Of a stretch of 64,000 nucleotides of DNA, positions 7,977 to 55,159 are shown piece by piece; positions within the stretch are counted from its first letter, which is position 1; every line of letters begins with the position of its first letter. The stretch is from NCBI GenBank assembly GCA_964385615.1, contig CAYLPP010000004.1, positions 108,743 to 172,742 on the forward strand, given 5' to 3'. The notes under the pieces were generated by a model, which saw only the letters and a list, made by a program, of their open reading frames with translations, did not search any database and had not been told where the DNA came from. This stretch comes from an uncultured bacterium. Lineage in GTDB: Bacteria > Omnitrophota > Omnitrophia > Omnitrophales > Aquincolibacteriaceae. Both the position numbers and the translations under genes were made by a program.

Positions 7977-8513
7977 ATGGAAAACATGATTTGCAACATC
8001 TGCGGCTCTCAAGAAGCGACCATCCATCTGACGGAAATCGTTAACAGTCAGATGATGGAAATCCATTTGTGCGAAACCTGCGCCCAGGAAAAAGGCACGG
8101 ATTTCAAGACTCATTTCGGGTTGGGCGATTTAATCGGCGGACTCGCGGGCGCCGACCCTGAAGCGAAGCCCGGTAAAACCCTGCCTTCTGCCAAATGCCC
8201 TGAATGCGGTCTGACTTACGATGATTTTGGTAAAAACGGCCGGTTAGGGTGCGCGGGCTGTTATACCGCCTTTTCCAAGTTTCTTCTCCCTTTGATCAAA
8301 CGCGTTCAGCGTTCCACCACTCATGTCGGCAAACGTCCCGGCAATGTTTCTAAAAACGTCAGCCACGCGCATGACCTTCGCGTCCTTCAGGACCGGCTCC
8401 GCAAGACTGTCCAGATGGAAGAGTTTGAAAACGCGGCCAAGATCCGCGATGAAATCCGCCAGATCGAGGAGAAAATGAAAAAAAGTCCTAAAAAGGGGAA
8501 AAACGGTGAGTAA
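7977..8513 (+). CDS. mcsA: McsA-like activator of protein arginine kinase (zinc-finger pairs plus a UVR domain)
   Basis: CNICGS..CETC and CPECG..CAGC Cys pairs, and a UVR-like EEFENAAKIRDEIRQIEEKM. The gene sits directly upstream of mcsB. Confidence 0.7.
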   Translation: MENMICNICGSQEATIHLTEIVNSQMMEIHLCETCAQEKGTDFKTHFGLGDLIGGLAGADPEAKPGKTLPSAKCPECGLTYDDFGKNGRLGCAGCYTAFSKFLLPLIKRVQRSTTHVGKRPGNVSKNVSHAHDLRVLQDRLRKTVQMEEFENAAKIRDEIRQIEEKMKKSPKKGKNGE

Positions 8514-9570: not shown

Positions 9571-9609
9571 TACTTTTTTCATAAAGCAAGACCAGAAAGT
9601 GGAGGTTTT

Positions 9610-32541: not shown

Positions 32542-35500
32542 ATGAAAAGTTATAAAAAACCTAGAGCCTTACGGCTGACTGCGCTTGCGGTTCTACTCTG
32601 CTTTCTTACCTCGCAGGGCGGGCCGGAGGCACGCGCTTTTTCGGCTCCTGAAGGCCCCTCGATCCCTCAAAAATTTGTCCATCTCGAGGAGTCCTTTCAA
32701 GGGACTTCCGGCAAAACTCTTCTATTCATTCAGGATGCCCATGAGTCTCTGGAAGCTCAGGAGAATATCGCGAAAGCGATTCAGTATTTCGTGGGGAGCC
32801 AAGGGGTCAAGACGGTGTATGAAGAGGGGTATGAAGGTGAAGTGCCGACGGATTCCTATTTCGCGTTTATCCATGATCCCAAAATCCGCCGGAGAGTCTC
32901 CTATTTCTTTTTGGATAAGCTTCGTATCGGCGGAGCGGAATTCGCCCATATCAACCGGGAAAAAGATTTTAAACTGATCGGGGCCGACAGCATCAAACTG
33001 CATCTTGAAAATATCGCGCAGTACCAGAAAGCTTCGGCCCGGCAAAAGGAAGTCGCTGAAGATCTGCGCGCGGTTTTAACCGAATTTGAAAAACTGGGTA
33101 ATTCTCATTACTCTGAAAAAATTAAAATCTGGCTGAAACTTCGCGGAAGATTTGATTCGAACCGGCTTCCGCTTCCTGACTACCTCAAAAGAACCGCGGG
33201 CCTTCTGGCGGATACCCGCGCTTACCCGCTTATCTCCCTTTTAATCTCGCCGGGCATTAATCAGGACCGGGAAAAGCTTAAAAAGCTTGAAGCCATGGAC
33301 CCCCGTCAGCTTTTTTCTGAAATTGACCGGATGGAAAATGATTTAGCCCAAAAGGAACTTAAGGGGAAAGAAGAACTGAAAATTTTTCAGTATCAAAAAG
33401 AGATCATGCTCCTGGTGCGGTTGAACAATCTTGAGGTCAGCGCTCCGGAATATGAAACGGCGCAAGCTGTTCTGGAAAAACTTCAGACGCGGGAGCTTGC
33501 GGAATTTATTGCCCGTGAAAGTAAGAGGACTCAGGTTCTATCCCGGGAATGGGAAGAGGAAATCCGGCACGCGCTGGATTTCTATAAAATCGCTAATGCG
33601 CGTGATCGTGAAATTGAAAGGGGAATTGAAGGGTTTCTTAAAAATCCGGATGAAAACACCGCGGTTCTGGTTTTTGGCGGATTTCATAAGAACGCGGTGA
33701 AGTCTTTTCTCAGGAGCAGGAATATTTCTTATCAAATTCTCAGCCCAATTATCAGCGGGGAAGACGCGGTTCACAGGGCTTACTACCGTGAGCTGATGTC
33801 TGAGGGATTTTACGATTTTGAAAAAATCGCTGCCCCCAGCCGGGCCGCAAGACCGCAAACTCTCATGACTTTACCGCAGGCGCGCAGTGAAATCCGGGGT
33901 GTTTACCGGACCGCGCTGGATAAACCGGATCTTGAATATCCTCTTTTTGAAAAAGAAGCCGTCCGCGCCTTCAACTCCCCGGCGGCCCGTTCCGAACTCC
34001 GTAAAATGTTCGCCGTGGAAGATGAAGTTGTCAGAGTCGAGATTGCCCAAACTTCCGGCAAGTATGTTCTGAGCGCTTACAACCTGCGTAAACAGGAAAC
34101 AGAGCCGCGTGTTCGGGTGGAGCTGATTGAGCCTTTATCCGGTGAAGAAGAACCTGCCAGGCTTGTGTTGGGAGATATTGTTGAGTCGCATATCCGCGCG
34201 GATGAGTTTTTAAGAAGGGCTCTTTATGTTTTACTGAAAAAATCCAGCGTGCAAATGGTGGGGTACCTTCCGAAAACCGGATCGGCGGAAGAGATGGACA
34301 AAATTTTCACATGGCTCGAAAAACAACCTGGGATATCGCTGTTAAAAGGAAACTCCGCCACGGTCAAGTACGATGCTGCGGAAGTTCTTATGCCCGGGTA
34401 TTTTATCGGGGAATGGAACCGTATCCGCAGTTCGAAAGATTACGGCGAACAGGTTTCGGATTTTCTGGACAGCCTGCTTTTATTTTATTCCAGCGAAACG
34501 GATAAAAAGCATCTTCATGATTTTCTGCTTTTTCTTCTTCGAGATCCGGATTTTATAATCAGACGCCAGGCCGTCGAATTAATGCTTAGGTACGTAAGAA
34601 TTCCTGTCGACCAGATTTTTCTCCACCTTGAAAATCCTGATTCAGGGCCTTTCAGGGATGACCAGGTTTCTCTCCCGAATCCTCTAAGCTCGGAATTGGC
34701 AACCGCGAATAAACGGCTGGCTCTCCTGGTTTTTCTTTCTCAAATTTCACAAGCCGTAAAAGCTCAGCGCTGGGCTGTAGACGCGTATTATGGGGCTGTC
34801 CTCAGACAGAGGTTTGCCAGTGAACTTGAAACTTCAGCCGGAGACCCTGTTTTTGATATCGCGAATGAAAGCGCGCTGATGGAGTCCATACAGAATGAAC
34901 CTAAAGCCGGCTTGGGGCATGCTGGAAAGATGAGTGCGCTGGAAGTTCTGGTCAGGGAATATTTCCGCTATTTGTACGTGACGGAGGTCCGGAAACAGGC
35001 GGATCCTTTTAAATGGCTCCATGATGATTTGTATGCCATGGTTCCTCAACTGAAGATCCCCAAGACTGAAGCGCTCATTATTCGAATGACTTCGAAGTTC
35101 CGCTCCGAACTCAGGACCGAAAATCCATGGGATGGCCGTGTCCGTGAAGTCCGCCTCAATGCGGACCGTTCCGCGGCTTCCGTGGTATTTGAAGACGGGA
35201 AAACGGTTGAGCTGACAGAAAAATTCGAAGAGGGCGCTTACCATGAATTTTTCGCTTATCATGAAAATGGGCGTAGGCTTCTGCTAAAGGTCATGAAGCC
35301 CGGTTTAGACGGGGACCGGTATGACAAGGGCGTAAAGTCACTGGAAAATGAAGCCCGAATATCTGATATTTTGAGACGCGTCAAGCATATGCAGAACGTA
35401 ACCAATGTTATCTGGCTTGGAACGATCCCCGGTTCCGGCGACGCGCTTTTAATTTCCGGACCCGAAGCTCAAAGCCTAAAAGATTGGCGTGAACGTCTTA

Positions 35501-38500
35501 CGCTTCAGGAACGGGGCGGTGTTTTTCGCCAGTACGTGGAGCAGATTTTTCAGGCCTATTCCGGCCCGGAACGCGAGAGTGTCTCGATCCACGATTTGAA
35601 ACCGGCGAATGGACTGCTCAAAGTCACCCGAAATCCCGACGGCAGTCTCCGCTATACGGTGCATGTGATTGATTTGGAAGCCGGAAAAATGACGGAAGAC
35701 ATTCCTTTCCGTGATATCTGGCGCGGCACCTATCCCTACCTGCCTAACGCGGAGCTGATCGCAATGCTGATGACGGAGCTTGGCCGTCACAAAACTTTGG
35801 GGTTGGTTGGTTTTATGGAATTGCTGATTTTCTTTCAGGATTTTGTTCTGGATGATGACGCTATGAACGGGGGAACCGCGAATGTCGAGAAATTTTTGCG
35901 GCGCAAAGACAAAGCGGTTTTCGAGAATATCGTTAAAAAAATCAGTGATTACGAAAAGTACCGGAAAATCTGGTATTACGAGGAGCATCCCGGCGATCCG
36001 GTTGACCTAAACGCGCTTTTCGCGGATTTGATTGAAAGCTTGCGGGTCATTGAGGGGTTTAAGGTTCGAAAAGTTCTATTTGTGGAGAGCTGGTGGAATT
36101 GGTTCGCGGGTTTCATCTCAATGATCTTTCGTAAACTCCTGGCTCTTTTGCCCAAGAGAACCCGCGCGCTGCCTTTCGAATTTAATGATGCGGAGTCGAC
36201 GCGATTGCCGGCAGCGCCTCCGGCGGATGACGGGATTTCGTCCGAAGCGCCTACCCCCAGACCTGAAACCGCGGGAACGGATACGCTTTCTCAGTTCCGC
36301 CGTTTAATGTTTCTTCTGGAAGCCTTGGGCCCTCAGTTCTCAGAAAGAGATTTCGTCCGAAAGGGAAACCGGACGGTGCGTGAGTTAAGTTCTCTTTACC
36401 TGATCGAAAAAGCGGCGGAATCCAACGACGCTCTTGATGTTTCCATTTACGAACAAGCGGAAAATGATGTCCGGCGCGTTTACGGCTGGCTAAAACGGCC
36501 TGTCGATTCTTACGCTGAAGATACGATCCGTTATATCCGTGAAAAATTTATAACCCCGCGTTCCGAGCTCCGGACGGCCGCGCGGGTGGAGGATAACGGT
36601 GTTAAACTTCGTGAAATTCTAGGACGGCTTATCCGCACGCGCACTTCCGGGGAGGTTGTTATTTTGCCTGGAATCTCCCAGCATCCTGCCGTGATTGATA
36701 AAGACACACTCGAAAAAGATAAAAAAGCCCTGACAGATCTGATTCGTTTGTATCTCAAGCAGGCGATCAGCCTGGGTCCGCCTTCTTCCTATTATCTTCC
36801 TTGGGATATTTTTCCCTTTGAGCGGAACTCCATTGAACTTGAAACCTTAGTGTCTCTCGGCCGTTATCTGGGATTTTGGAAAACGGAGCCTGATCCCGGA
36901 AGCAAATTTCCTTCAGCTGCTATTCTGCGCACTTACCGCACGCGAATTCCTCTAATTGGAGATTTTAATCTGCATGGCGACAGTGTTAAAGAAGGCAGGC
37001 TGGCTGAATTGAACGATCTTGAGCGTCTGGAGATTCTTCACCGTGTTTTTGCTGAAGTGAAGACGGAAATGGAAACGGAAATGCTCCCCGGATATTTTGA
37101 TATGAGCGGGCCTTTGCGTTTCGATTCTTTCAGGGAGATTCCCGGCATTGACGATCTGGAAGATTTTGAAAGGAGAGGCGTTTTGGGGAAAGGTAAAGAA
37201 GCGGCGGTTTTTTCCGCGGGGACGGGCACTCTTCCCGCGCTTCTGGCGGCTTTCACCCGAAGCGGGAAGATTACCGTTTATGAGAAGAATAGTTATTTTT
37301 TGGCAAAGGCCCGCAAGGCGGTAGAGCGGCTGCATCATCTGGGAGTTCTCGATGAAGGGCGCTTTACCTGGGTCAAAGAAGATTGGAGAAATCAAAAAGA
37401 TGATTGGAAAAAATTTGATTTCATCCTTTTACCGCCGGCCGGACAGAGTGAAAGTCCGGCTTCCGAAAAAGAAATTCAGGAATCGGTATCCGCTCAAGCC
37501 GTTGTTTATAAATTCGCCCGATCTGAAGTCAGATCCGTGAGGGCTTTGATTCAGCAAGCGGACCATCTTGAGAGGACCGGCGCTTTAATTCCGGAAGTTT
37601 CATCGCAGTTTGTGAATCGGCATATGGGGCCTTACCGCACCGCGCTCCAATTATTGACTAACCGGATTTTGGCGGAAGATCTTAGTGATGATGCTTTTCT
37701 TGAGCTTTGGACGGAATACCTTAAGGCTCTGAAAACCGCGGATTTGCCTCTCCTCGTGCAAGTTCCGATTCATATCGTTGCCGTGATGCGGATGCATGGC
37801 GCTCAAATGGCGAGCTGGGCGCGTGTCTGGTTTTCAAAACCCAGAAAGGATTGGCGCCGGATCGTTCATGTTTTGTCCGCTGAAGCAGGAGATGAAACGC
37901 TCATGGGAACCTTGCTTCGGCGGGAGATTCTGCCGTTCATGGATTCTTATATGAACGCCCGTAAAAGAGAATGGATGGATGAGAAGACGCCTGAAGACCG
38001 CGCTGCAAGATGGAAATATCATTGGACCCAGGCGGGTGAGAATCCGGGCGTGGAAGCGGTAGAAAAAGCGGGCTCTGATTATCTGGAGGAATTTATTCAA
38101 GGATTGCCGGTTTCTTTCCGCCAGACGGATCCGGGCAAAGACTGGCCTTCGCAGAGTCAGAGTCTTTTGGAAATGCTGAGTCCCGCGGGCGACGGGCTTT
38201 TAAGTCTGATTATTGAAGCTGAGGAAAAGAGCGGATTAGACGCCTCTCAGTTGATTGTGCAGTTTGATGAAAGATTAAATTTCCTTCCGGCGTTCGTGCA
38301 CAAGCTTTTTATGAATGATTTGCTGAAAAAATACAAAGTCTATCTTTTAAAGATTTGGCTGCGTAATCTCCAGGAACAGGCGGGATTTGAATATCAGGCA
38401 GGAGATTATTTCGGGCAAGTGAAAATCACCATAGAAGCCAAGGCAAATGAAGGTGCCGGTTTAAAAGCATATTTTTCGGGAGCTCCGGATTGGAAATTTG

Positions 38501-41500
38501 AGCCGGATGGACGGACTTTAAAATTTCCCGAACTTTCGGGAGTGGAAGATTCGGAAAATCGCCCGGGGATGTTCAAGGCTCCCGGCGTTTTTTGGCAGAT
38601 TTTAGGAGATTTTCAGCTGAAGTTTCTGGAAAAAGACGGGCGCAGAATACTGGTTCCGATCGCTTATCTGGAAGAAGTTCAATCTTCCACAGGTTATAGG
38701 GATATTCGAAATAGAACGGAGCATCTTAAAAGCGCGCGTAAACTGAACCGGGGCCGGACTCTGGCTGTGGACGCTGTCGCGCGCGCGGCCGCGAAAATGG
38801 GGGTTCTTGTTATGGCCCGCGGTCCGGAAACCGCGTCTCTTTTTATCTATAACCGCCGGACACTCGCGCAGATTGATCCGGGAAGCCGGACGGAAATCGA
38901 AATGCACTATGTCTCGCCTTTTTCCAACACGCAGCACTGGAAAAAAGTGGAAGCGCCTTCTTACGCGGGTACGGATTATTATCTGTTCGAAGGCAACCGC
39001 GAGGTTTTAAAACGTCACGGCTGGCCGGAAGACACGATTCAGCAGCTTCTCCGCTCAGAAGTCCGGAGAGATCCCCGCGAAAATATCCGCATGGACTTAA
39101 CTGAAAACTGGCGCCGGTTTCTAAATGGCGAGGCCGCGGATCCTGAAATCGCAGATCAGGTGGAGCGGGCTTTAAAATCGAAACTGGATCATTATCTTTT
39201 GATAACCGCGCTGATACGGCTTCACGTTTCCCAGGCGGTTACGGAAGAACAAATATTTTCGGGGCTCGAAAGGCTGATGGAGTCCGTGAGTACCGAAGGC
39301 AAAGAATATCTTTCCATTCTCGGGATCATTCTGAGTCAGCGGAATTTCGCGGAAGGTTTTGCGGGTTTGAATCCGGAGAGCGGCGCTTTTTATTTCGACT
39401 TGATCGGCATGACGCAGACGGGTGATGTGCTCCCTGAAGTCCGGCCTTTGAATCAGCGCAATGAAGCCGTGGGCGCGCTCTTGAATTTGGATGCTCCGGA
39501 TAAAAAAACGCTCATGGATGGTGTCAGGGACGTCACGGGTGAGAAAGCTTTAACCCCGGAAGATTTAAATCCGCTTACGGATATTGTCCGGATTCAGGCC
39601 GGAGACACTCAGGATGTCTACATGATTTCGGCGCTCCTTAAAGACGGACGCCGGGTTCCTTTTATTTTAATGGCAGCCAGGGGCCGGACCGCGCTTCGTG
39701 CCGTGAGAAGGGAGTTTGAAAATTTTGAACCTTACCGGGATGATGAAAGAGCGGTTCATGTTATTGGCTGGAGTCAAACCGGCAATGAGGCAGGCTACAC
39801 GAGCCGATTTTCCAATACTGAGGAAATTATCTATGTTTCCATGAGCGAACCGGCTCTTCATGGAGAGACACCCGGGAATTTTACCAAAAATTCCGACCTT
39901 CCGCTTCGTGTCGGTGAAATTAGAGGAGCAGAAAGCCTGCGCAAAATTACAGCCGCGTTCGCGTCCGCGATTGTTTATTTTTACAAGGCTGATTTAAAAA
40001 GAAGCGTCCAGTTTATTGTTAGTTCCGCCGGGGATCTTAATTTTTACGATTCCGACTTTCAGCCGATCGCGGAACAGCCGGGGAAATACGAAGTGAAGCC
40101 CGAAGTTGAGAAGCTCCGCACACGGCTGATTGCTTTTCGAGGCTACAATGATGAGGTTGATCCCGCGCATTTGATCGCGGAGCTTTTCGATTTTACTTAT
40201 TTTACTCCCGACAGTTCTGATCTTATGACCGGTCCTGTTCATGATGACGCGATGATCCAGGGTGTTCTTGATGGTCTGGTTCAGGGACTGGAGGATAAAC
40301 TGAAAGACCCGGTTCTCGCGCGTAAGACCGCCATGGAATGGCTTCAAGCCTATCTGAACGCGTTTAGTGATTATGAGAATCCCGTTTTCGGCCCGCCCAT
40401 CAATGTTATCCCTGAAGTCCGCGGGCGGATTGCCCGTCTCCGCCGCGAAGTTAAGCAGGCGGAAAAGCGCTCAGAGCTGAGGGTAAACCCGAAGTCTGAA
40501 GGTCTGGATTTGAATGGTTACGCGTGGCTGAAAGAATTACCCGTGGCGCACTTCAAGGAGCTGAAGGATTTTTTGGAGATGCTTTTCGGCCTGGATCAAA
40601 GCGGGAAACTTTTGGAATTGGAGAAGAGAGAGAGAATTCTCGAGCAGTCAGCGTATTTTTTGCGTTTATTCCAAGACCGCGTTAAATATCCCCGGGGGTT
40701 TGATGAGATTCCCCCGGGTATATTTGCCCATTCCGCCGGAATGTTTTTTATCAGCAATTTATCGTATCTGGGTATTTACAGACAATTGGAATCAGAAGGC
40801 GTGCTTCAGCCGGGTGCGGTTAAAAACCTGATAGAGCTGGGGCCCAGCTTTTGGAATTATTCCTCCGTTCTCCAAAAAGCTTATCCCAACCTTCAGCATG
40901 CTCTGGGGGTGGACAATGATCCCGCCAAAACGGCAGGTTTTCAGCAAGGTGCTGTACAGCTTTTAGGTGTTGACCCTGCCGTTTTTCAGTATGAGATCGC
41001 GGACTTTAAATCGCTTGATCAAAATCAAAAAATCCGGCAGTGGATGGATCAAAACGGAAAATCCGACGTTCTATTTCTTCAAAACCCAGAGCCTCAGAGC
41101 CGTCCGGGTGTTTTCTTTACAGTGCCCGAATACCGCGATTTTTTAGCGCGTGCCGGAAGCCTGCTTGATGAAAAAGGCAAGATGATCGTGGTCATTGATG
41201 AAGACCGTCTCGATCATGACGGAAATCCCGAACTTTTATCCGTCATTCGAGGGCTTGTTTATCAAACTTTAACCGGATTCCGAATTCCTCAGCAGGCTGG
41301 ATTTTTAGGAATGCCGGAACTTCGGAAGGTGAAAATTCTGGCGATTCCTCAGCCGGAACTTGTCCGCTTGGCTCAGCGCTCCGAAATGCGCGCGCTCAAT
41401 TTTACGCCGGTTTACGCGGTGGAGGAGCGGATTGAACTGATTGAAGAAATCCGCAAGCAAAGCGCGCTCAACTCAGAGCCCCCGTTTGTGATTCTTGAAG

Positions 41501-44500: not shown

Positions 44501-47500
44501 AACAGTCGTTGGACTCGATTTTTGAAAAAGAAAAGAACCGGAATCTTTCGGTTTACGAACAGGATCTTTTTGATTTTTACGTAAACGGGGAAGGCCGGGA
44601 CGTGCCTTTGGAATACCGCCCAGGGATGCATGGGGGAACAGGCTATTTCGGAAATGATAATGATAAAGGCCGGCCTTACGTCTGGTTCAGCGACGGCCGG
44701 ATGATCAGTAGCCGGTTCCGGGATCCCCGTTCTCCATTTGAAATATTTAAACATGAAGCTTCCCACACGATGGACGCCATCATGGAAAGAAAAGGCGATT
44801 CTAATCTGAAGGGGTATGCCGGTTTTCAGGGCCAGACCAATTCGGGAGTCGATATCTTTTATGTTCCTCAGCATCGGCTGGTTTACCAGGAATTTCGCGC
44901 CAACCTCTGGACTTACGACGGGAATCCCGGCCTGGCGCTCAAAGCTACTTTGCAATCCTATCCGGAACTGCGCACTCTCTTTAATGGAATCGCGGATGTT
45001 GAGAAAAAACCAGCTCCTGTTTTGTACACAGCCTTGAAATGGATGAGCCGTGACATGAATGACCAGCTTTATCCGGATTCAGTTTCCGATATCGGGCAAT
45101 TTGATCAGATTTACATTCACTGGTACCTCGAATTCGCTTCCGGACGGGTTAAAAAACTCAAACGCTCTGAGCTGCGTATGGAAGATATCAACACTATGAA
45201 CGCTTCAGAACTATTTCAGAAACTTCGGGACTCGAGGCTCGGCGACCTGGAAGAGCGGGCGGAGCTTCACCGGCAGTGGTCGGAAGTTCCCGCGGAAAAG
45301 CGCAGGCGGGGCGTGGGAATGATTGTTCTGAGGAAAATCGGCGGGGAATGGAAGGTTCTCTTTGGCCGGCAGAATCACGGCCGTTACAACGGTAAATATG
45401 TAGCTCCTTCCGGCGGAGTTGATAAACCTTTTGATCCGGTTTATGAAAATGCCGCTGAAACCGAAATCCTTCTTAAAAGCGGCATTGTGCAGGATTTTGA
45501 CGGCGCGCGCGGCGGAAAAGAATCCGCCCAGGCCGCGGTTCTGCGGGAACTCAAAGAAGAAACAGGGATCGAGGGGCGGATTGCGGCCCGGCTTGCGGAC
45601 CGCTTTGCCGCCGACGACGGTCTTTTTATGACCTATTTTATTCATGTGGATTCCGGCGAAGATGAAACCGTCCCGGAGCGTGATGGGGAAATCGAACCTC
45701 TGATATGGGTTCCGCTCAGCGTGATTCTGAAATCTGAATCCGGCCAGGCCGGGCAGACTGTTGAACGGGAATTTAATATCGAGTTTGTGCCGGGTCTTAA
45801 ACGGCGTGTTTTGAATATTCTGAAAGACCGGATTCAGTCGCTTCCTCGCTCCGAATTGCGCAATTCTCAGGAGCCTTACGAAAAGCGTCAGGGCCCCACG
45901 GATTTCGAATGGGTCACGCTGAATACCGCCCGTTTTTACGATCATTTGCGTCTGTTGTGGAGTTTGACGCCTAATGTCGCGAAAATCAGGCAGGAATCCA
46001 TGGCGTTCAGCGACGAAGAAAGAGAATCCTTTTTTGATTGGATTGTCCTTCCTTCACCCGCGATGCCGCCGGCGGAATCGCTTCGAAAAATTCTGCATTT
46101 AATCGTAGAGCAGCGGATTCTAGCCAGTCAAAGTAAAAACAGCGATGCTATTTTAAACGCGAATGACTGGGCCGATGTGCTGGCTTACCGCTGGAAAGTT
46201 CCGCCTCAGGTTTTGCAGGCGTTGTTTTTATGGATGGCGCGTTCTTCAATACGCCCGTCGGAAGTTTCGTCTCAGACGCTGATCGATTTTATGAATGCTT
46301 TCATCAGCAGTTACACTGAGGGAAGGCCAAAAGCTTATCAATGGACGCATTTTGGGCCCGCGATTCCCGCCGGTGAATCGGCTGAAGCTAAGCTGAATCG
46401 CGTGACTGCCAGTATTAACACGGCCAAGGCGCTGTTCGGTGAAGATTTTGTGCGGGGGAAAACGCGTTTTATTTCCCGTATCGGCGATTCGCCTTACTAC
46501 ATCGGATTCGGTTTCGGATTCGCGTCTGAGGATCCGTTCCGTCCCACGCTGATTCTAGGTGAGTGGAAAGACGGACAGAAAAATGTTTTTGAACGGGTTT
46601 TCTTTAAAATGAGTTTTGATATTGCCGATACCGGCCGTTTGCAGATTGTCACACTCAAAGGGATCAAGGGCAAAGAAACGGTTATTACCGATTTTCGTTC
46701 CGCGATGGGCGGCTCTCTGGGGCCCGGCCGCGCGCTTTTGACTGCTGCCGCAGTTTTCGCCCGCAAATATAGTTACCGCGAAGTTCTTGGATTAAAAGGG
46801 GAGCATCATACGACCGCTCCGGACGGAAAGCCTTTGAATTACAGCGCGATTTATAAAGGATTCGGTCTCCGTAAAAATTCCAAGGAGGGCCCCTGGCAGT
46901 CGACGGACGTTCTTTTTGAGCGGTTCTCCAGAATCCGGGCAGCGGGTGACGCCAACGCGCAATCGCTTACCCGTTTTCTCGAGGTTTCAGAAAAAATACT
47001 GCCGGCGATCCCTGCCCGCTCCGAACTGCGTACTGAGGAGGAGGATTTTTCCAAAAGCCTCCGGCACATTGAGCTTAAAAAATCCATGACAGACGTAGAA
47101 ATCAAGAAAGTCAGCGACGGATATCCGGGCAAAACACCGATGAGGGGGAAAACGCCGGTGACTAATAACCGTCTGTTGACGAAGATTTTGGACCGGCAAA
47201 AGGGCGAACCCCGTTTTCCTTCGTTGCTGGCCGGGAAACATGTTCTTTTAATCGGGCCGTCGCCGGAAGGCGATGATCTGGAGGCGCTGATCAGACGTTA
47301 TCCTGGGATCGGTAATATTTATCTCGTGGACGCAGACGAAAGAGTTTTTATCGGCAATGACCGCAAACTGCAGGATATGCAGGCCTCAGGAATTGCTTTA
47401 CCCAAAGTGGAAGGTTACAAAATTAACGCGCTTGAATTACCCGGGGAGTGGACGGAGCAAGTCGATGTCGCTATTCACGCGATGGTCATTGACCAGTTCT

Positions 47501-48279: not shown

Positions 48280-48332
48280 CCGTGCAGGTCCGGTCGAATA
48301 CGGTTTTGCATATGATGGTCATATGGGCGGGC

Positions 48333-48360
48333 TTGTTTATTTAAGGATTTGGGGTATATT
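48333..48360 (+). promoter_or_regulatory. Candidate sigma70 promoter for giant ORF 2 (TTGTTT, 16-nt spacer, TATATT)
   Basis: The hexamers lie in the 169-nt AT-rich spacer between the two giant ORFs. Spacing was counted by hand. Confidence 0.25.
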
Positions 48361-48448
48361 TTAATGCGGATTTATTTTTCTTTAATAAGGGACTTGTTTT
48401 TATTTTACGGGGGGATATCAGGCAATTTACATAAAAAGGCGAGCGAAA

Positions 48449-51400
48449 ATGGTCATGACGAAAAGGAAGAAAAAAATCCGCAAGATTTTTACCTTGGGGA
48501 TCCTTTTTTGCTTTTCCGCCACAAATATCTGGGCAATGCCCGAACCCGGTCTTATACTCCTTCCGCAAAAAGAAACGCCCGCGTTTCTGCAGGTTGAAAT
48601 TCCAAAAGACATTGCTTCGATTGAAGAGGTTTATGAAGCTCCGCCCAAAAGCGATCCGCGTTTAGTTCTTCATGTGCAGAACATTCACGGCAACTACGAA
48701 GCGCAGATGCAGATCAAGAAACTTCTCGATTACCTTTACAAACGCTACGCTTTTAAACTTTTATTTGTGGAAGGTGCCGTCGACACTCTCGATCCTGCCT
48801 ACCTTAAACTCTTTTCTGAGGAAGATCGAAATCAAAAATTAGCCGATTACCTCGCGAAGCGGGGAGAGCTCACCGGCATTGAAACTTACATGATGGAAGC
48901 TCCCCGTGATGTCCGCGCGGTGGGCATTGAAGAGCCCGCTCTATACCGTAAAAATCTCGAAGCTTACAAAGCTGTGATGTCTAAAAGAGAAGAAACGGAT
49001 AAGTTCCTCAGGCGTTATGAAGAAAAGCTCGAGCTTTTGTCTTCCCGAAATTTCTCTCCTGAGACCCGGCGTTTAATCAGTGAATGGAAAAAGTTCCAGG
49101 ACGGCCAGCGTGATTTCCTGCCCTATGTGAGACGTCTTTCTCAGGATGCCCGTAAAATTATCGGACTCGATCTCGAAAGTCTTTTCGCTCAGGTCGAGTG
49201 GCCTCAAATGACCCGGCTTTTAGTGCTCCAATCGATGGAAGCTGAGTTGAATCTTGAATCGGCTCAAGATGAAAAACAAAAGGTCTTGAGTTTTTTAAAA
49301 GAGAAAAAGATATCGTCTGAAATTTTAACTGCCATTGAAAAACTGGGTGAGAAACGCATTACGATGACGCGTGAAAATTCTGAAGCCGCCCGCCTGGAAG
49401 ATTTGCCCCGTTACCTCTTGGAGCGTCTTGTCGATGAAGCCAGCCCTCGAGGTTTTTACTTCCACGACTATCCCGCTTTTAGCTTGTGGGCCGGTTATCT
49501 GATTCTTCAAAGCGAGCTTGATTCGAGGACTCTTTTTGATGAAATTGAGAGGGTTTTCGAGAAGACGCTCGATCAGCTGACGGTAACCCAGGGTGAAAAA
49601 AATCTGATGGAACTTTACCGTGACGAACGTCTTCTCAATAAACTTCTTCATCTTGAACTGACCCGTAAGGAATGGGAAAAGGTCAGCTACCGTAAAGAAT
49701 GGAACCATCCCTCGGCTATGCTGAACCGCCTTAAAAAAATAGGGCAGGAATTTGACTCTCGGTTAAAAAGGACTCCGGAAACTTTGGTGCCCAAGCAGGA
49801 AGTGACAGGCATGGAAGAATCTCCGGAGTCTGAAGAATTTCCGATGAACGGTCTTTTTGAAACCGCTGTGAGCTTTTACGATTTTGCCCGCGAACGCGAG
49901 GCTGTGTTTATGAATACGATCAAAAAGGAAATGAGCGCTCAGAAAACAGAAAAAGCCGTGCTGGTTACCGGCGGGTTTCACACGCAGGGTATTTTAGAAA
50001 TGTTCCGTGATGATGAAATTAATTATAGCGTGCTTATGCCGAGGATCGCGGGAAGCGACCTGAGCACCGACAATTACGTTACTAATATGCTGGAAGACCG
50101 CAAAACCATGTTCGACATCGCAGGTCTTGAAGCCATTATTAAACTTCAAAATGCGGACCGCAGAACCCAACAGGGTGCCGACGCGGCTTACGAAGTGAAA
50201 AGAACGCTGGAAGCCTACGCGAAGTTTACGGGTTCTGAAACGCTTGCTCAGCTCGTTAATCATTTTAACGTTTTCAATCAATCGGCTTTCTCAGTAGGCT
50301 ATAAAGTAACGCTGGAAACGGTGCTCAATCAAGATAACCAGCCTTACGGCGTTAGAATTTTAGTAAACGGTCAGCCTCTGAAGAAAAATGACAGCGATAA
50401 GCGGGACATTGTCATTCCGATCATGACGGGTAAGAATCCGGAAACCAAACTCCCTGAATTTCGACTCGCGGATCACGCGGTGCTTAGGATTGGCGAGTCA
50501 GTGACTTCTCGTTCTGAGGTAAGAGGGGTAAGTGAAGCGGAGAAGGCTCAATTTGAAGCAATGCTTGGAAGGTTGCGGGGTTTAGGAGAGGGATATCTGG
50601 CGGCACTGCAGACTGGAATTACGCAAGTGATCCAGGCCGGTGAGGGGGGTGTTTTTGATTGGGCCACGAGTGACAGCGGTCATAAGGCTTACCGTGAATT
50701 ATTCGGAACGAATACGGGAACGGTCAATTATGGAAAGTTTGAAAATGCGGCGGCGCGGCAATTAGCCTCCACGATCGCAGGATTTATTCTGCAGTCGGGA
50801 TTGAAACCGAGAAGCTCAGCCGATCAGCAGGAACTGCTTGGAATCTTAACTCAATATGGAAAAGAGCAGGAAACAGCTGGTGAAAAGCCGTCCTCTGTCA
50901 AGCCGCAAGCCGGTGCTTGGAATGCCGAAATGACTGCAAGATTTCCTGCTTTTACGGTTTCGGTGGATGAAATTGAAGTGCCCGAAGCCCCGGTTATCGC
51001 GGGCAGGAGAGTGGAAGGATTCATGAGAGGGCTTCCTGAAGCCGGGGAGTTTCAGCGCGCGTACGGAGCGCTGGTGGGAGCGCGGGATTGGCTTGAAGAA
51101 GCGGGGCAGTTGGAAGGCGGGGAATTATTCAGTCAATGGGCGCAGGCGGTAGGACTGGTGCGGGAGATTCTGTGGATAATCAGCTACCGTACTGAGGGCC
51201 AGCGGTCTGCTCTCCCGGCTTTATTGAATCAAGCGATTGATGAGACGGTGGATTTGAACGGGAGTGAGTTGGCCTTCAGAGAGTCCGGGCTTAAGAAGCT
51301 GGAGCATTTGAGACAGGCGCTAATGCAGAATTTTAATTGGCCTGTGCCGAGCTTTATTTCAAAGTCTTTTTTGATAAAAGCTGAAGACGCAGCCGCTCGT

Positions 51401-54400
51401 ACGGAACGCATGATTATTTCCCCAAATGGCAAGTACGCGGTAAAGGTCGGAAGGGATCCGGGAATTTCTGTGTTGAGAGTTGGGAACTATGGAGAAGAGT
51501 TTACAGAGGTGGTTGATTCTGTCAGCCAGTCTGGACGCAGGGTTCTGGGGGCTGCCTTTGATTCTGACGGCGGTTATCTGGCGACATCCGGAGTTGATCC
51601 TAAGCTGAATCTGTGGAGTGTCGCTGAGGATGGGAAGCTGACGCTCATCTTTCAAGAAGACGTGAACGATGTAACTTCAGCAATAGCATTTTCTCCTGAT
51701 AACCGCTATTTGGTAAGCATAGGTTTGAATCAAGGGCTGAACCTGTGGCGTGTCGAGAACCGGTCTTTGCGTAAGGTTTTAACGTGGAGACCTCAAGATT
51801 TAAGCCGTTGGCCGGTTGGTTTAATTCGCAGTGTTGCTTTTTTACCTGGCGGTCAAGTTGAGATTGTGGGAGGGCAAAATGCAAGCTCCGGATCGAGGGG
51901 GCTCGATGCGTTTGTCTATAATCTTTTCCCTGTGGCGCCGCAAGCCAGGTCTGAAGCGCGCGTTTATGAAGAAAGGGATCCAAGGCTCGATTTTAGGAAG
52001 GGAGAGTATTACCTGCACGAGAATTTTGGGTTAGTGAGGCTGGAAGATTTTGAATACACCGTAAAAAATGGGGTTCCTGAAATAGCAAGCGATAAGATAA
52101 AAGTGCTTCCGCTGGGTGCTAGTCAGACAAATACGGCAATCATAAAGAATTCAAGTAAAAGAAGCGGGTATGTCGAAACCTCGCAGAATCCAATCACTCT
52201 GACCATTACTAAGGAAACGATGAAAGCGGGTTCTTTCGTCCCTTACTACAAACAAGATCAAAATTCTAAGCTTAGGGTAACCGATGCCGCGAAAGCGCTT
52301 ACAGAAAAAAGGCTTCAGGCCTTGGGGTATAGTAAATCCTCAGCCTTAGTTCCTATTTTGTTTGGGTTTGACGTGATTGCCAAAAGAATTCAGTCTGAAA
52401 AGAAAAGCGGAGTGACGGACGGCTATTTTAGCCGTGTGTATGAACAGATCAAAACTGAAGTGCCGGAAGGGGCTATGGACTATCCTTGGGATGTTCTTAA
52501 AAGCCAGAGTTTAACGGCTGAGCAAATAAAATTTTTCAAAACTTTATTCCTCCGGATTTATCAGGAACAAGGAGAGGATGTGATTTTGACCGGTTTACTT
52601 GATTCCTTTAAGCGGGAATCTGAAAACTATATGGACACCTGGGCTTTTACCACCTCGACCGGGAATGATTTTGTGGAGAATAAAACTTCAAACTTAATTG
52701 GAGCAGGAAGCCGCGGCGATCAATGGTCTCCGTTAAGAACCATCCCGAAGGACATCGACAGATACTACCGTGGGAATCTTTTAAAAGGGCTCTTGTTTTT
52801 GAACAGTGAAACCGAGACTTTGATAAGTGAAGAGGACTACCAAAAAATTCAGGACCGGTTTAACCTCTATCTGAGGCCTTATTATTCGCGAAAAAATCCC
52901 CTTCATGGCTCCGATGCATTTTCTCAGCTGATGCTGACTTTTAAAGACGCTATTCGCGACGGTGATTTTACAGCCGTTAACGAGCTTCTTAAAATTGTAG
53001 GGCCGGACATTGTGAGGTTAAAAAGCCGACTTTCCGGAAAATATCTCGTGGTGCCCGCGCCGTCACCGGATTTCTTTAAAAATCAAACGGTTCCGTTAGC
53101 CGCGATAATTGCGCGCGAGCTGGATTTTCCCGCGAGTTTATTTGCTTTGTCAAAAAGCGGCCAAAGAAAGAAGCCGCAAAAGCTTCAGCCTGATCTTTGG
53201 CATCGAGTTGAGAACGCGGGGAAATCTTTTCTTGAGGCGGATCCTGAGATTGTGTCGGGGAAAGAAATACTGGTGGTGGATGATATTGTAACCAGCGGAT
53301 TTACGCTGGATGCCGCGCGCGAGGCGCTTTATGCCGCCGGCGCGAAAAAAGTTCTTACTCTTGCTTACGGCCGTACGACTTACGGGAAAGATGAAAATAC
53401 TGCTGATGAAAATACGCCTGTGGATGAAGATGAAGCGGAACCGGCAGAGACAGAAGATGAAAGCGTTGCGGAAGCGCAAGGAAGTATTCTCGCCGGATGG
53501 CCCTCCGAAATCATGCTTTTGAAACCGTCTGAAGAGGCTGTGGCCCAGGGGGCTCTTTCGCGGACCATGGTTGATAGGCTCTTTGAAATATTGTCGCCGG
53601 GGCTTATCGATGGAATGGATCAAGATGAGAAAAACCGGTGGGGCCAAATTATAATTTGGATCCTGAGACAACCACAGTTAGGGTTTACGGACAGTCAGCC
53701 GGATGTTGAAAGGAAAGCTGTTGGGCTCAGGATTTTAATGAACTTGAATTATAGGGGGCCGGGTCTGTTAGAGCTGATCAAGGATGAAATTGATTTTAGC
53801 GCGCCTGGCCGCACTGTAAGAGCGAAGGTTTTTTCAGGGGTGATGGAACTGGCCGGCAATCTTCCGCCTGAATCAGCCGTTGATTTATTGCCTGGACTAA
53901 GCTCTTTTCTGGATCTTGCCCCGCAGAGAGTATTAAATAATCTCACATTCGGCGGTGTGAAGATTCCTATGCTGGCAGTTATGAGAATACAGATCATTAT
54001 TGAGAAAGCGGAAGAATCCTTGACTCCGGAAGCTCTCGTAAAAGTGAAACCCGCGCTAAGCACAGTGAAGACGGCCTTAACCGCTTATCTGGGCAGCGGA
54101 CGCTTAAAAAAAGATGAAAAAGCATTGATCAATAATGTGCTTCAAAGTTTATCCCGCTCCGAAGCGAGAGACGATGGCCGGCAAGCCAGGTCCGAAGTGC
54201 GTTTCACTCAGCCGACTGAAGGCGCGGAAAAAATAACAGAACCGGGGGGTGTGCCTGGAATTCCGGAGCGCTTTAACGGCGTGCAATTCCCTTCAGGTTC
54301 AGAGTTGTCCCGATGGTTTATGACGGTGGAGCCGAAGCTGCCGGTAAAGGTTCGCGTGCCGTTTTTAAGCGGGGGATTTGTCGCCTACGCGGAGGAGCCG

Positions 54401-55159
54401 GCGGATATGGGCGAAGTTGCCGTTTTGGGTGATCTCGTGGTCAGAGAAACTACGCCTGAATCCGCACGGCAAATTTCAAGAATCGCGGCGGAACTTGACG
54501 TGCCGTCCGTTCCGATGGCCTTGCTGTCTGTCATTTCTAATGAACCTGATCTTGAAGCTTTGGCCGTGGCGGCCGTCTTGAATCCCAAGGCTTACTCGGC
54601 CGTCGTTTACATTCTTCCTGACGGAAAATCAGAAGCCGAAGCCCGGGACCTTCAAAAAAAATACGAAGATCAGACCAAAGAGATCGAAGCGCTTCGGACA
54701 GGCGGCAAAGCTGTGGGCAAACGCTTCCGTTTGATTGTGACTTCCAAGGCAAATGCCATGGGGCGCATTTCCGAAGCGGAACGCTATCTTTTCGCGAACA
54801 TGAAGGATTCGGTCAACGCTTCAAGTGCCGGGGAAATGATGGAAAAATACGGGGTACAGCTTGTCGTTGGCCCGAATCTTTTGGATTTGTCACTGCTTGA
54901 ACGTCCGCGTGTCAGCCGTTTGGTCAGGCTTGAACTTGCGTCCGGCGCGCCGGATGCCGGCGCTATATCAGGAACGGCCATGGTGGTTGCGGCTAAAATG
55001 GGTCTGGCCAAGGAAATTGATCCGAAGACTGCCCAGTTAATTGATAACAGGGAGCAGGGCGATAAGGTCATTACGCTTTCGCTCAATAAGCTTCGTGCCT
55101 GGGAGCAGAAACTTCGTTCTGAAATCAGAGCCACTCTCAGCTTCGCGAAGGCGGCTTAA
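48449..55159 (+). CDS. Giant secreted multi-domain protein 2 (2236 aa), with an N-terminus paralogous to giant ORF 1
   Basis: Uninterrupted 6.7-kb ORF. Signal peptide MVMTKRKKKIRKIFTLGILFCFSATNIWA/MP. The shared N-terminal domain, WD40-like region and PRTase module are annotated separately. Confidence 0.8.
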   Translation: MVMTKRKKKIRKIFTLGILFCFSATNIWAMPEPGLILLPQKETPAFLQVEIPKDIASIEEVYEAPPKSDPRLVLHVQNIHGNYEAQMQIKKLLDYLYKRYAFKLLFVEGAVDTLDPAYLKLFSEEDRNQKLADYLAKRGELTGIETYMMEAPRDVRAVGIEEPALYRKNLEAYKAVMSKREETDKFLRRYEEKLELLSSRNFSPETRRLISEWKKFQDGQRDFLPYVRRLSQDARKIIGLDLESLFAQVEWPQMTRLLVLQSMEAELNLESAQDEKQKVLSFLKEKKISSEILTAIEKLGEKRITMTRENSEAARLEDLPRYLLERLVDEASPRGFYFHDYPAFSLWAGYLILQSELDSRTLFDEIERVFEKTLDQLTVTQGEKNLMELYRDERLLNKLLHLELTRKEWEKVSYRKEWNHPSAMLNRLKKIGQEFDSRLKRTPETLVPKQEVTGMEESPESEEFPMNGLFETAVSFYDFAREREAVFMNTIKKEMSAQKTEKAVLVTGGFHTQGILEMFRDDEINYSVLMPRIAGSDLSTDNYVTNMLEDRKTMFDIAGLEAIIKLQNADRRTQQGADAAYEVKRTLEAYAKFTGSETLAQLVNHFNVFNQSAFSVGYKVTLETVLNQDNQPYGVRILVNGQPLKKNDSDKRDIVIPIMTGKNPETKLPEFRLADHAVLRIGESVTSRSEVRGVSEAEKAQFEAMLGRLRGLGEGYLAALQTGITQVIQAGEGGVFDWATSDSGHKAYRELFGTNTGTVNYGKFENAAARQLASTIAGFILQSGLKPRSSADQQELLGILTQYGKEQETAGEKPSSVKPQAGAWNAEMTARFPAFTVSVDEIEVPEAPVIAGRRVEGFMRGLPEAGEFQRAYGALVGARDWLEEAGQLEGGELFSQWAQAVGLVREILWIISYRTEGQRSALPALLNQAIDETVDLNGSELAFRESGLKKLEHLRQALMQNFNWPVPSFISKSFLIKAEDAAARTERMIISPNGKYAVKVGRDPGISVLRVGNYGEEFTEVVDSVSQSGRRVLGAAFDSDGGYLATSGVDPKLNLWSVAEDGKLTLIFQEDVNDVTSAIAFSPDNRYLVSIGLNQGLNLWRVENRSLRKVLTWRPQDLSRWPVGLIRSVAFLPGGQVEIVGGQNASSGSRGLDAFVYNLFPVAPQARSEARVYEERDPRLDFRKGEYYLHENFGLVRLEDFEYTVKNGVPEIASDKIKVLPLGASQTNTAIIKNSSKRSGYVETSQNPITLTITKETMKAGSFVPYYKQDQNSKLRVTDAAKALTEKRLQALGYSKSSALVPILFGFDVIAKRIQSEKKSGVTDGYFSRVYEQIKTEVPEGAMDYPWDVLKSQSLTAEQIKFFKTLFLRIYQEQGEDVILTGLLDSFKRESENYMDTWAFTTSTGNDFVENKTSNLIGAGSRGDQWSPLRTIPKDIDRYYRGNLLKGLLFLNSETETLISEEDYQKIQDRFNLYLRPYYSRKNPLHGSDAFSQLMLTFKDAIRDGDFTAVNELLKIVGPDIVRLKSRLSGKYLVVPAPSPDFFKNQTVPLAAIIARELDFPASLFALSKSGQRKKPQKLQPDLWHRVENAGKSFLEADPEIVSGKEILVVDDIVTSGFTLDAAREALYAAGAKKVLTLAYGRTTYGKDENTADENTPVDEDEAEPAETEDESVAEAQGSILAGWPSEIMLLKPSEEAVAQGALSRTMVDRLFEILSPGLIDGMDQDEKNRWGQIIIWILRQPQLGFTDSQPDVERKAVGLRILMNLNYRGPGLLELIKDEIDFSAPGRTVRAKVFSGVMELAGNLPPESAVDLLPGLSSFLDLAPQRVLNNLTFGGVKIPMLAVMRIQIIIEKAEESLTPEALVKVKPALSTVKTALTAYLGSGRLKKDEKALINNVLQSLSRSEARDDGRQARSEVRFTQPTEGAEKITEPGGVPGIPERFNGVQFPSGSELSRWFMTVEPKLPVKVRVPFLSGGFVAYAEEPADMGEVAVLGDLVVRETTPESARQISRIAAELDVPSVPMALLSVISNEPDLEALAVAAVLNPKAYSAVVYILPDGKSEAEARDLQKKYEDQTKEIEALRTGGKAVGKRFRLIVTSKANAMGRISEAERYLFANMKDSVNASSAGEMMEKYGVQLVVGPNLLDLSLLERPRVSRLVRLELASGAPDAGAISGTAMVVAAKMGLAKEIDPKTAQLIDNREQGDKVITLSLNKLRAWEQKLRSEIRATLSFAKAA
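51420..51800 (+). other. WD40-like beta-propeller repeats in giant ORF 2
   Basis: Repeating units ..AAFDSDGGYLATSGVDPKLNLWSV.. and ..AFSPDNRYLVSIGLNQGLNLWRV.. follow the WD-repeat consensus (S/T-x-D-x-x-h-x-h-W). Confidence 0.5.
53038..53370 (+). other. ComF/GntX-type phosphoribosyltransferase module in giant ORF 2
   Basis: The PRPP-binding motif ILVVDDIVTSGFTLDAAREAL..GAKKV and the upstream KYLVVPAPSP..AAIIAREL pattern are typical of ComFC-family PRTases. Confidence 0.6.
53385..53480 (+). repeat. Acidic low-complexity linker (DENTADENTPVDEDEAEPAETEDESVAEAQ) in giant ORF 2
   Basis: Run of Asp/Glu-rich codons immediately after the PRTase module. Confidence 0.6.

Follow-up and report, generated by a model that had tools for sequence, protein, structure and literature searches.

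Two adjacent giant open reading frames (ORFs) in a 64-kb stretch of DNA from an uncultured Omnitrophota bacterium (GenBank assembly GCA_964385615.1, contig CAYLPP010000004.1, positions 108,743 to 172,742; hereafter the window) are punctuated by a recurring peptide motif, RSExR, of which ORF 1 (g1) has 15 copies and ORF 2 (g2) five. The copies sit in linkers at module edges and mark nearly every module boundary, and on balance we favor the interpretation that they are junction sites for the proteolytic processing of a secreted polyprotein. Much more tentatively, the conserved domain at the N-terminus of both proteins (the N-domain) could be the enzyme that cuts. Throughout, P-numbers denote fetched proteins and L-numbers metagenomic loci, and the coordinates of the features are collected in the Table.

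The motif stands far above background. By composition, 0.16 copies are expected in ORF 1 and 0.06 in ORF 2, i.e. ~0.2 against the 20 copies found, and none occur in the remaining 33 large ORFs (13,014 amino acids, aa) of the window; a similar frequency in ordinary proteins of the genome, an objection raised in the first-pass annotation of this DNA, is not what these neighbors display. Every RSE tripeptide in the two giants is followed by xR. The translation contains all 17 copies that the annotation had listed, and its five for ORF 2 are the full set; its 12 for ORF 1 are correct in themselves and three too few, KRSELR at 40465, QRSEMR at 41374 and ARSESR at 43705 having been overlooked. The information profile is sharp at R, S, E and R, with a preference for a hydrophobic or small residue at the fourth position, a weak preference for Ala at position -1 (9 of 20 copies, otherwise S, P, L, K, F or Q) and no other signal in the flanks from -20 to +24.

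The motif had also been described as conserved in the DNA. This holds in so far as the degenerate DNA pattern CGNTCNGARNTNMG has 15 matches, all within the two giants (shuffles: mean 0.78, maximum 5), but nucleotide conservation does not exceed what the peptide needs and is absent from the flanks. The first Arg is encoded by four codons (CGC, CGT, CGA and AGG), Ser by five (TCN and AGT) and the last Arg by five, and the use of several synonymous codons for each invariant residue indicates that the peptide is what selection acts on. There is a mild bias at the first Arg, whose codon is CGY in 16 of the 20 copies and never CGG, though CGG is the commonest Arg codon in the genes of the giants.

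The claim that the copies fall between modules is upheld by profile searches, pairwise alignments and structure models: (i) an exhaustive HMMER search, for which g1 aa 3900-5099 served as query, yielded 92 proteins, each sharing one unit that is matched motif to motif, the motifs lying at query positions 43, 309, 537, 927 and 1140 and the matched stretches at 50-280, 307-543, 544-917, 939-1130 and 1138-1200; (ii) when g1 was compared with the fetched proteins by BLAST, 3 of 94 segments in aa 3900-5245 crossed a motif by >25 aa, against a mean of 53 and a minimum of 41 in 2000 random placements of the same intervals, and if the partner has the motif too, the boundaries agree in the two proteins, as in the alignment of g1 854-1346 with P0026 2133-2622 (62% identity), with offsets of 0 and -6 from motifs in both; and (iii) in an AlphaFold model of the N-domain (predicted local distance difference test, pLDDT, 83) aa 427-447, just before the first copy (aa 448), are disordered with pLDDT <50. 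In the Nudix module, the one junction module that was modelled (g1 4170-4480, pLDDT 83), a compact domain occupies model residues ~41-263; KRSELR lies at residues 38-43 in a coil beside a stretch with pLDDT <50, and PRSELR lies at residues 266-271, just past the last helix, with a disordered stretch after it. Fold prediction might have placed copies inside domains, as the first-pass annotation had pointed out, and it places them at the edges. Some of the module assignments made there fared less well. The P-loop and the NTP-transferase, placed between its copies 6 and 7, form one module at aa 2946-3462, and two further motif copies lie between those two copies; the sole Pfam signal for its second methyltransferase, a weak one at aa 4910-5008, falls between its copies 11 and 12 rather than 10 and 11; and no database supports the methyltransferase-like module proposed between copies 4 and 5.

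Both giants are members of a large uncharacterised family. The same architecture is found in giants among the HMMER matches, P0001 (3938 aa), P0002 (4104 aa), P0006 (7403 aa), P0010 (5117 aa), P0026 (3676 aa), P0032 and P0056, as well as in 80 metagenomic loci and in 14 N-domain homologues from a word-indexed database, two of which (P0102 and P0105) carry the label Candidatus Omnitrophica. Stand-alone proteins of 200-500 aa correspond to many of the modules. In P0026, the counterparts of g1 447-859, 854-1346 and 2167-2655 lie at 2582-2995, 2133-2622 and 1649-2146, respectively, and the C-terminal modules of the two proteins correspond; because module order differs in this way, the modules have been shuffled as cassettes. 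In P0001, P0002, P0032 and P0056, Pfam recognises modules of a housekeeping type, among them cofactor-independent phosphoglycerate mutase (iPGM), LOG, HATPase, two CsrA domains, an acyltransferase resembling FabD and a methyltransferase resembling TrmB.

The relatives keep a motif at the junctions, a point that the first-pass annotation had proposed to check: R[SA]ExR stands at equivalent sites or is replaced by a substitute specific to the protein. In the 80 metagenomic N-domain ORFs, R[SA]ExR occurs 357 times in 182,569 aa, versus six times in 110,886 aa of 317 neighboring ORFs, a 36-fold difference. When the Nudix modules are aligned, the motif stands at matching positions at either end in P0001, P0002, P0007, P0009, P0032 and P0070, and the junctions carry GARLA or AARLA in P0073 and, at the distal end, DAAM in P0044. 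Individual proteins favor one variant: RAEVR in P0001 (10 of 11 copies), RSEAR in P0009 (11 of 13), RSESR in P0010 (7 of 14), RSELR in P0056 (6 of 7), RAELR in P0032 (5 of 7), RSEMR in L125 and L126 (six and five copies) and RAEAR in L098 (six copies). Other giants with the same N-domain or modules have a recurring motif of their own at intervals of 200-440 aa, namely GARLA in P0047 (22 copies) and P0073, [GA]ARMA in P0089, GTRL in P0025, GFG[AV] in P0004, L104 and L120, SSSP[VI] in P0016 (17 copies), NDAAM in P0044, ATDEQG[VM]EP in P0081 and EGSHI in L157 and L158. Two contigs carry paired genes, L100/L127 on Ga0209573_1000140 and L147/L160 on Ga0209573_1000109, with N-domains 41% and 36% identical, and all four use RSELR almost exclusively. 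This sharing of a variant on one contig would fit a recognition factor acting at the level of the genome; the support is modest since RSELR is also the commonest variant. Tandem giants occur at several other loci, and there the motif is found in upstream tails too.

The RSExR copies divide ORF 1 into an N-terminal stretch of 447 aa, a 35-aa mini-unit and fourteen units of 207-517 aa, and they divide ORF 2 into 687, 479, 736, 11, 309 and 14 aa. Both chains begin with a predicted signal peptide, called by eye from a basic n-region, a hydrophobic core and a cleavage position between ARA and F (ORF 1) or between IWA and M (ORF 2); in ORF 1 the region is modelled as a helix (residues 9-26) with low pLDDT. 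Apart from the signal peptide, the giants contain no convincing transmembrane anchor. The single Cys of each giant lies within the signal peptide, so that the mature chains of 5.2 and 2.2 kaa are cysteine-free, and the relatives are nearly so (median 0.08%). In Pfam, ORF 1 matches Nudix and MobA/GlmU-like NTP-transferase, with a P-loop NTPase and a methyltransferase below gathering scores, and ORF 2 matches WD40 and phosphoribosyltransferase (PRTase); neither giant has a Pfam peptidase domain or RTX, haemolysin-type or glycine-rich repeats. Rather than adhesin repeats, the modules represent enzymes and regulators of ordinary kinds. The HExxH module is also found as stand-alone proteins and within other giants, module 14 has many small stand-alone homologues, and module 15, the last 207 aa of g1, is always C-terminal in P0026, P0014, P0075 and P0079. 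P0026 has a weak Pfam Pkinase match, in a module other than the one at 2133-2622 that resembles the kinase-like module of ORF 1.

The mini-unit between the first two motif copies (33883-33987; RSEIRGVYRTALDKPDLEYPLFEKEAVRAFNSPAA) is conserved in P0026 and P0002, and if the motifs are cut it would come off as a small peptide. The C-terminal ends are also alike: g1 ends in VVAFSA (48250-48276) and g2 in SFAKAA (55130-55156), and among family ORFs with a stop codon nearly all finish in [AS]A, often as Y-x-V-I-S-x-[SA]-A. Across the relatives P0001-P0091 and L085-L164, the complete members all terminate in [A/S/Q]-Ala. This shared Ala-terminated C-terminus may be a recognition or sorting signal.

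The N-domain heads every complete family member examined. The two N-domains of the window are 27% identical (g1 178-421 versus g2 292-550), and the family alignment has invariant Q64, H67 (IQDAH), E95 (EEG) and E133, near-invariant H136 (GAEYAH) and R354, and a conserved GGFH. In a Foldseek search of the PDB with the AlphaFold model, the top matches were EreC and Bcr135 (probability up to 0.96, E ~3e-3). Among 16 N-domain sequences, not one matched a Pfam model for TraB, Ere or ChaN even at E <= 5, and NCBIfam gave no match to the N-domain. On the basis of the model, we regard the assignment of the N-domain to the TIKI/TraB/erythromycin-esterase/ChaN alpha/beta fold as moderately secure. The TIKI/TraB/Ere superfamily has a 2-His/2-Glu site and includes esterases as well as site-specific endopeptidases such as TIKI and RRSP (PMC6254334), which makes the N-domain a candidate peptidase. 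Like the TIKI/TraB/PrgY/GumN-Ere-ChaN superfamily, it appears to place His and Glu residues at strand ends of a split alpha/beta core (IQDAH...EEG...GAEYAH...RD...GGFH); unlike it, the N-domain lacks a sequence-profile match, has a helical insert of ~200 residues and is fused to or located beside giant modular proteins. The N-domain also exists as stand-alone secreted proteins (P0100, 431 aa, L081 10001-11296; P0096, 446 aa, L083 168-1508). In L081, the P0100 gene adjoins a weak Peptidase_Mx match and an ATP-grasp gene.

Combining these data, we suggest that both ORFs would be made as Sec-exported, cysteine-free polyproteins in which an N-terminal hydrolase domain is followed by autonomous modules (kinase-like, P-loop with NTP-transferase, HExxH, Nudix, methyltransferase-like, WD40 and PRTase), and that R-S-E-[LVIAMS]-R in the flexible linker at each module boundary would be recognised by a protease that cuts the chain there into separate proteins. 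For this protease, the N-domain would be the most economical candidate, acting in cis or in trans after export, and the probability that we attach to this assignment is well below even; alternatively, the HExxH module or an unlinked enzyme would cut. If the protease co-evolves with its site, each genome or protein would be expected to have its own variant (RSELR, RSEAR, RAEVR) and distant relatives to have unrelated motifs. By analogy with viral polyproteins, the pattern described above is what one would expect of junction sites in a polyprotein whose protease evolves together with them: several autonomous units lie in one ORF (Pfam domains, stand-alone homologues, varied order), and a short motif recurs in the accessible linkers between them. 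Copies that are 11 and 35 aa apart and one that lies 9 aa from the C-terminus are ill-suited as spacers and natural as cut sites. Of the three roles proposed in the first-pass annotation, a protease site is the one best supported, by the linker signal, the replacement of the motif between lineages and the hydrolase fold of the N-domain, cleavage itself being what we infer. The position of the scissile bond, the identity of the cutting enzyme and action of the products outside the producer cell we likewise infer. Considering the signal peptide, the lack of cysteine and the dependence of the enzymes on cofactors (ATP, S-adenosylmethionine, phosphoribosyl pyrophosphate, nucleoside triphosphates), we speculate that the products act outside the cytoplasm of the producer, perhaps in a host or prey cell.

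Several observations weigh against this reading. There are stand-alone N-domain proteins without modules to cut, and a single hydrolase family would have to evolve specificities as unlike as RSELR, GARLA, GFGA and SSSPV, with the N-domains of GFGA users as similar to that of g1 as those of RSExR users. In addition, the motif occurs just 3-5 times in some members of >3000 aa, in which no other 4-mer is enriched, and the two giants differ in the fourth residue that they prefer, g1 favoring L and g2 favoring V, A or I.

The same data can be read without cleavage. RSExR could be a short linear docking motif on an intact chain that is bound multivalently by a partner, e.g. a chaperone or export factor handling the modules in turn, a scaffold, or the WD40 propeller of ORF 2 in the manner of WDR5 and its WIN motif; we consider this, the main rival, rather unlikely, although the linker location, the sharp motif, the uninformative flanks and the lineage variants would suit a co-evolving binding partner equally well. 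ARSE and ARAEV resemble the WIN core A-R-[A/S/T]-E, in which Ala at -1 is essential, and WD40 repeats are present in ORF 2. The resemblance fails, since the Ala before Arg is not conserved (it precedes fewer than half of the copies and is never found in P0009) and WD40 is absent from most motif-bearing proteins (Pfam finds it in ORF 2 only, and not in ORF 1, P0001, P0002, P0026, P0032 or P0056); the invariant second Arg, moreover, lies outside the WIN motif. For docking in general, little would be gained from two copies in tandem, separated by 11 aa, or from one lying 9 aa before the C-terminus, and no candidate partner is conserved beside the genes. A modification site is a far weaker contender: the kinase-like module of ORF 1 could phosphorylate the invariant Ser, which has Arg before it and Glu after it, or McsB, whose gene lies in the mcsA-mcsB-clpC operon 24 kb upstream, could phosphorylate one of the two invariant Arg, as a mark for regulation or degradation. 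However, McsB has little known sequence specificity, related junction motifs lack Ser, Thr or Arg (GFGA, DAAM) or have Ala for Ser (RAEVR), the kinase module is not universal across the family, and McsB and ClpC work in the cytoplasm, which the giants, with their signal peptides, would leave.

The first-pass annotation had also offered a conserved linker or helix cap and a recombination scar. That the motif is purely structural, a helix cap or salt-bridged turn insulating neighboring domains, would agree with its place at domain edges and with the second copy in the Nudix-module model forming a short helical turn (model residues 268-272). Yet the first copy in that model is unstructured coil with low pLDDT, the motif is identical within a protein and swapped for chemically unrelated motifs (GARLA, GFGA, SSSPV) at the same junctions in relatives, and neither the close-set copies (11 and 35 aa apart) nor the one next to the C-terminus is explained; we disfavor this role as slightly less probable even than modification. 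The lowest probability goes to a DNA-level recombination site or scar for cassette shuffling, with the peptide as a by-product. Modules are indeed reordered exactly at motif boundaries between relatives, and the codon bias of the first Arg (CGY, never CGG) could be a trace of a DNA site, but synonymous codons are found at each position, with Ser drawn from the AGT and the TCN family and Arg from the CGN and the AGR family, the nucleotides are conserved no further than the peptide needs and not at all in the flanks, and the peptide motif is kept across relatives whose modules share only 25-45% identity. Codon diversity thus contradicts the scar as a DNA site. An alternative genetic code, stop-codon read-through and 2A-like skipping were rejected: there is no shared codon and no upstream conservation, and the domains are in frame throughout. 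Self-cleavage by an N-O acyl shift at Ser was likewise rejected, the site being in disordered linkers and related motifs lacking the nucleophile.

Table. Coordinates in the window of the giant ORFs, their parts, the RSExR copies and neighboring genes
Feature	Coordinates	Strand	Remarks
Giant ORF 1	32542..48279	+	5245 aa; signal peptide, N-domain, RSExR-delimited units, conserved C-terminal module
ORF 1 predicted Sec signal peptide	32542..32637	+	MKSYKKPRALRLTALAVLLCFLTSQGGPEARA, then FS; by eye
ORF 1 N-domain	32659..33819	+	aa ~40-426; predicted erythromycin-esterase/TraB/ChaN/TIKI-like fold, large helical insert (~200 residues)
ARSEIR	33880..33897	+	ORF 1 aa 447-452; directly after disordered N-domain tail (aa 427-447)
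ARSELR	33985..34002	+	ORF 1 aa 482-487; end of 35-aa mini-unit
FRSELR	35098..35115	+	ORF 1 aa 853-858; start of kinase-like module, P0026 homology begins exactly there
ORF 1 module 3, kinase-like	35101..36558	+	DLKPAN at aa 1018; 62% identical to P0026 2133-2622
PRSELR	36556..36573	+	ORF 1 aa 1339-1344; end of kinase-like module in ORF 1 and P0026
ARSEVR	37516..37533	+	ORF 1 aa 1659-1664
LRSEVR	39049..39066	+	ORF 1 aa 2170-2175; start of homology to P0026 1649-2146
KRSELR	40465..40482	+	ORF 1 aa 2642-2647; missing from first-pass annotation
QRSEMR	41374..41391	+	ORF 1 aa 2945-2950; missing from first-pass annotation
ORF 1 module 8	41377..42927	+	P-loop GGKGSGKS at aa 2987 and GlmU/MobA-like NTP-transferase at aa ~3195-3346
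ARSELR	42925..42942	+	ORF 1 aa 3462-3467
ARSESR	43705..43722	+	ORF 1 aa 3722-3727; missing from first-pass annotation
SRSELR	44362..44379	+	ORF 1 aa 3941-3946; start of HExxH module
ORF 1 module 11, HExxH	44365..45162	+	HEASH at aa 4071, conserved EFRANLW
KRSELR	45160..45177	+	ORF 1 aa 4207-4212; HExxH/Nudix junction
ORF 1 module 12, Nudix hydrolase	45163..45846	+	AF2 pLDDT >90 across domain
PRSELR	45844..45861	+	ORF 1 aa 4435-4440; 2-3 residues past last Nudix-module helix
ARSELR	47014..47031	+	ORF 1 aa 4825-4830
ORF 1 module 14, methyltransferase-like	47017..47655	+	weak Pfam Methyltransf_25 match at aa 4910-5008
ARSEIR	47653..47670	+	ORF 1 aa 5038-5043; start of conserved C-terminal module
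ORF 1 module 15, conserved C-terminal module	47656..48276	+	ends in ARLVVAFSA
Giant ORF 2	48449..55159	+	2236 aa; same architecture, divergent N-domain, 5 RSExR copies, ends in RSEIRATLSFAKAA
ORF 2 predicted signal peptide	48449..48535	+	MVMTKRKKKIRKIFTLGILFCFSATNIWA; by eye
ORF 2 N-domain	48587..50128	+	aa ~47-560; 43% identical to P0010 N-domain
SRSEVR	50507..50524	+	ORF 2 aa 687-692
ORF 2 module 1	50510..51946	+	WD40 repeats at aa ~980-1146
ARSEAR	51944..51961	+	ORF 2 aa 1166-1171
ORF 2 module 2	51947..54154	+	phosphoribosyltransferase domain at aa 1548-1653
SRSEAR	54152..54169	+	ORF 2 aa 1902-1907
ARSEVR	54185..54202	+	ORF 2 aa 1913-1918; 11 aa after preceding copy
LRSEIR	55112..55129	+	ORF 2 aa 2222-2227; 9 aa before C-terminus
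mcsA-mcsB-clpC operon	7977-12078		UVR-motif protein, arginine kinase, ClpC
DUF6178 protein and GT2 glycosyltransferase	29245-30927		upstream of giants
471-aa protein	55324-56739		directly downstream of giants; no Pfam, PHROG or NCBIfam match

The window is a stretch of bacterial chromosome with housekeeping genes around both giants. The genes recognised by Pfam encode MetH, MTHFR, several tRNA synthetases, MacB, McsA-McsB-ClpC, MlaEFD, IspDF, Tmk, HolB, TatD, MtnA, ThiL, the DUF6178 protein and the GT2 glycosyltransferase, followed by the two giant ORFs, the 471-aa protein, MutS, MutL and an LMF1-like protein; the presence of MlaEFD in the same genome indicates a diderm envelope. The 33 large ORFs of the window are all on the + strand and the GC skew is positive throughout 1-64000, an unusually strict co-orientation over 64 kb. 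The first 20 kb had no match among phage records (megablast), PHROGs gave generic matches only, and the 64 kb contain no phage or conjugation genes and no genes for a type I secretion system. A phage origin was ruled out by the first two of these results together with the housekeeping neighbors (tRNA synthetases, mutS/mutL, clpC, ispDF), and the phage or toxin framing implicit in the first-pass annotation is wrong for a locus of this kind. Among one-genome-per-species GTDB representatives, the closest MutS, from a metagenome-assembled genome, is 68% identical and the others, spread across many phyla, are ~45% identical, which points to a poorly sampled lineage. The MutS query gave one close relative, on a 7-kb contig without a giant gene. 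Searches of genome contigs with g1 aa 1-1340 found no relatives; in the word-indexed database, g1 aa 3400-5245 and aa 440-1400 had zero matches at 1e-5, the N-domain query alone returning homologues, and a look-up of the exact ORF 2 sequence gave no record.

Giant proteins of up to about 147,000 aa have been reported from uncultured bacteria, and such proteins are largely unreadable in that each may work as a single chain or yield many products. A junction motif legible from the sequence alone provides a practical rule for splitting them into modules for structure prediction and annotation, and gives proteomics a concrete hypothesis, namely that protein termini should lie at the motif. If the N-domain is the enzyme, the family would offer a natural set of matched protease-site pairs. 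If processing occurs as suggested, the site code (RSExR, RAEVR, GARLA, GFGA, SSSPV) could parse every such giant into functional units; polyprotein expression, held to be a viral or toxin strategy, would have a cellular counterpart used on a large scale by bacteria, possibly as a way of sending enzyme sets out of the cell or into a host. As a tentative generalisation, which we think could well prove wrong, the giants may represent a widespread and undescribed class of secreted polyproteins in Omnitrophota-like lineages, in which an N-terminal protease with a TIKI/esterase fold cuts a genome-specific punctuation peptide. Equally tentatively, in that class a single cysteine-free chain would hold dozens of everyday enzymes and regulatory proteins (Nudix, kinases, methyltransferases, iPGM, FabD-like, CsrA).

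Giant multi-enzyme proteins of Omnitrophota have been published, and their authors suspected cleavage and noted that they could not analyse the proteins module by module for lack of known cleavage points (West-Roberts et al. 2023, bioRxiv 10.1101/2023.11.21.568195); a 'multi-enzyme' class of Omnitrophota giants has also been defined (bioRxiv 10.64898/2026.06.07.730766). The proteins described here resemble them in being very long chains of uncultured bacteria with a signal peptide and unrelated enzyme domains (kinase, methyltransferase, NUDIX) and differ in that the C39 or S8 peptidase domains invoked there were not found in ORF 1 or ORF 2. Neither of the two papers mentions a junction motif (bioRxiv 10.1101/2023.11.21.568195; 10.64898/2026.06.07.730766), and full-text literature searches on bacterial polyproteins and on Omnitrophota brought up no account of one.

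The analogy with MARTX toxins, drawn in the first-pass annotation, holds by function only. Both are single secreted giant chains with unrelated effector or enzyme modules that are released by cleavage in linkers, which in MARTX toxins is the work of an internal cysteine protease domain and in the giants is presumed. The MARTX cuts fall after Leu, and no fixed pentapeptide is known at those junctions. The MARTX effector RRSP shares the TIKI-type fold predicted for the N-domain (PMC6254334). Unlike MARTX toxins, the giants have no RTX or glycine-rich repeats, carry a Sec signal peptide instead of a C-terminal type I signal and are encoded among housekeeping genes, not in a toxin operon; the mature chains are cysteine-free and therefore have no MARTX-type cysteine protease domain. 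The lack of RTX repeats, the lack of cysteine and thus of that domain, and Sec export exclude membership in the MARTX family. The polyvalent proteins of phages and conjugative elements, described by Iyer, Aravind and co-workers in 2017, are reportedly also giant chains with Nudix, methyltransferase, kinase and zincin-like domains, and their processing by embedded peptidases is said to have been proposed. To our knowledge, no fixed junction pentapeptide has been described for them, and the giants differ from them in lying outside mobile elements and in having a Sec signal and a conserved N-domain.

The closest parallels in design are viral polyproteins (picornavirus 3C, flavivirus NS3) and eukaryotic precursors with dibasic or furin sites, which likewise have a short junction motif between autonomous units, and in which the motif is likewise uniform within a genome and different between lineages, as with a co-evolving protease. 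The giants are set apart by being encoded on a cellular bacterial chromosome, by export and by having 15 or more modules, and the candidate protease is esterase/TIKI-like in fold, not chymotrypsin-like or subtilisin-like. Polyproteins themselves are known; what is, on balance, probably new here is a polyprotein with junction sites in an unexpected setting.

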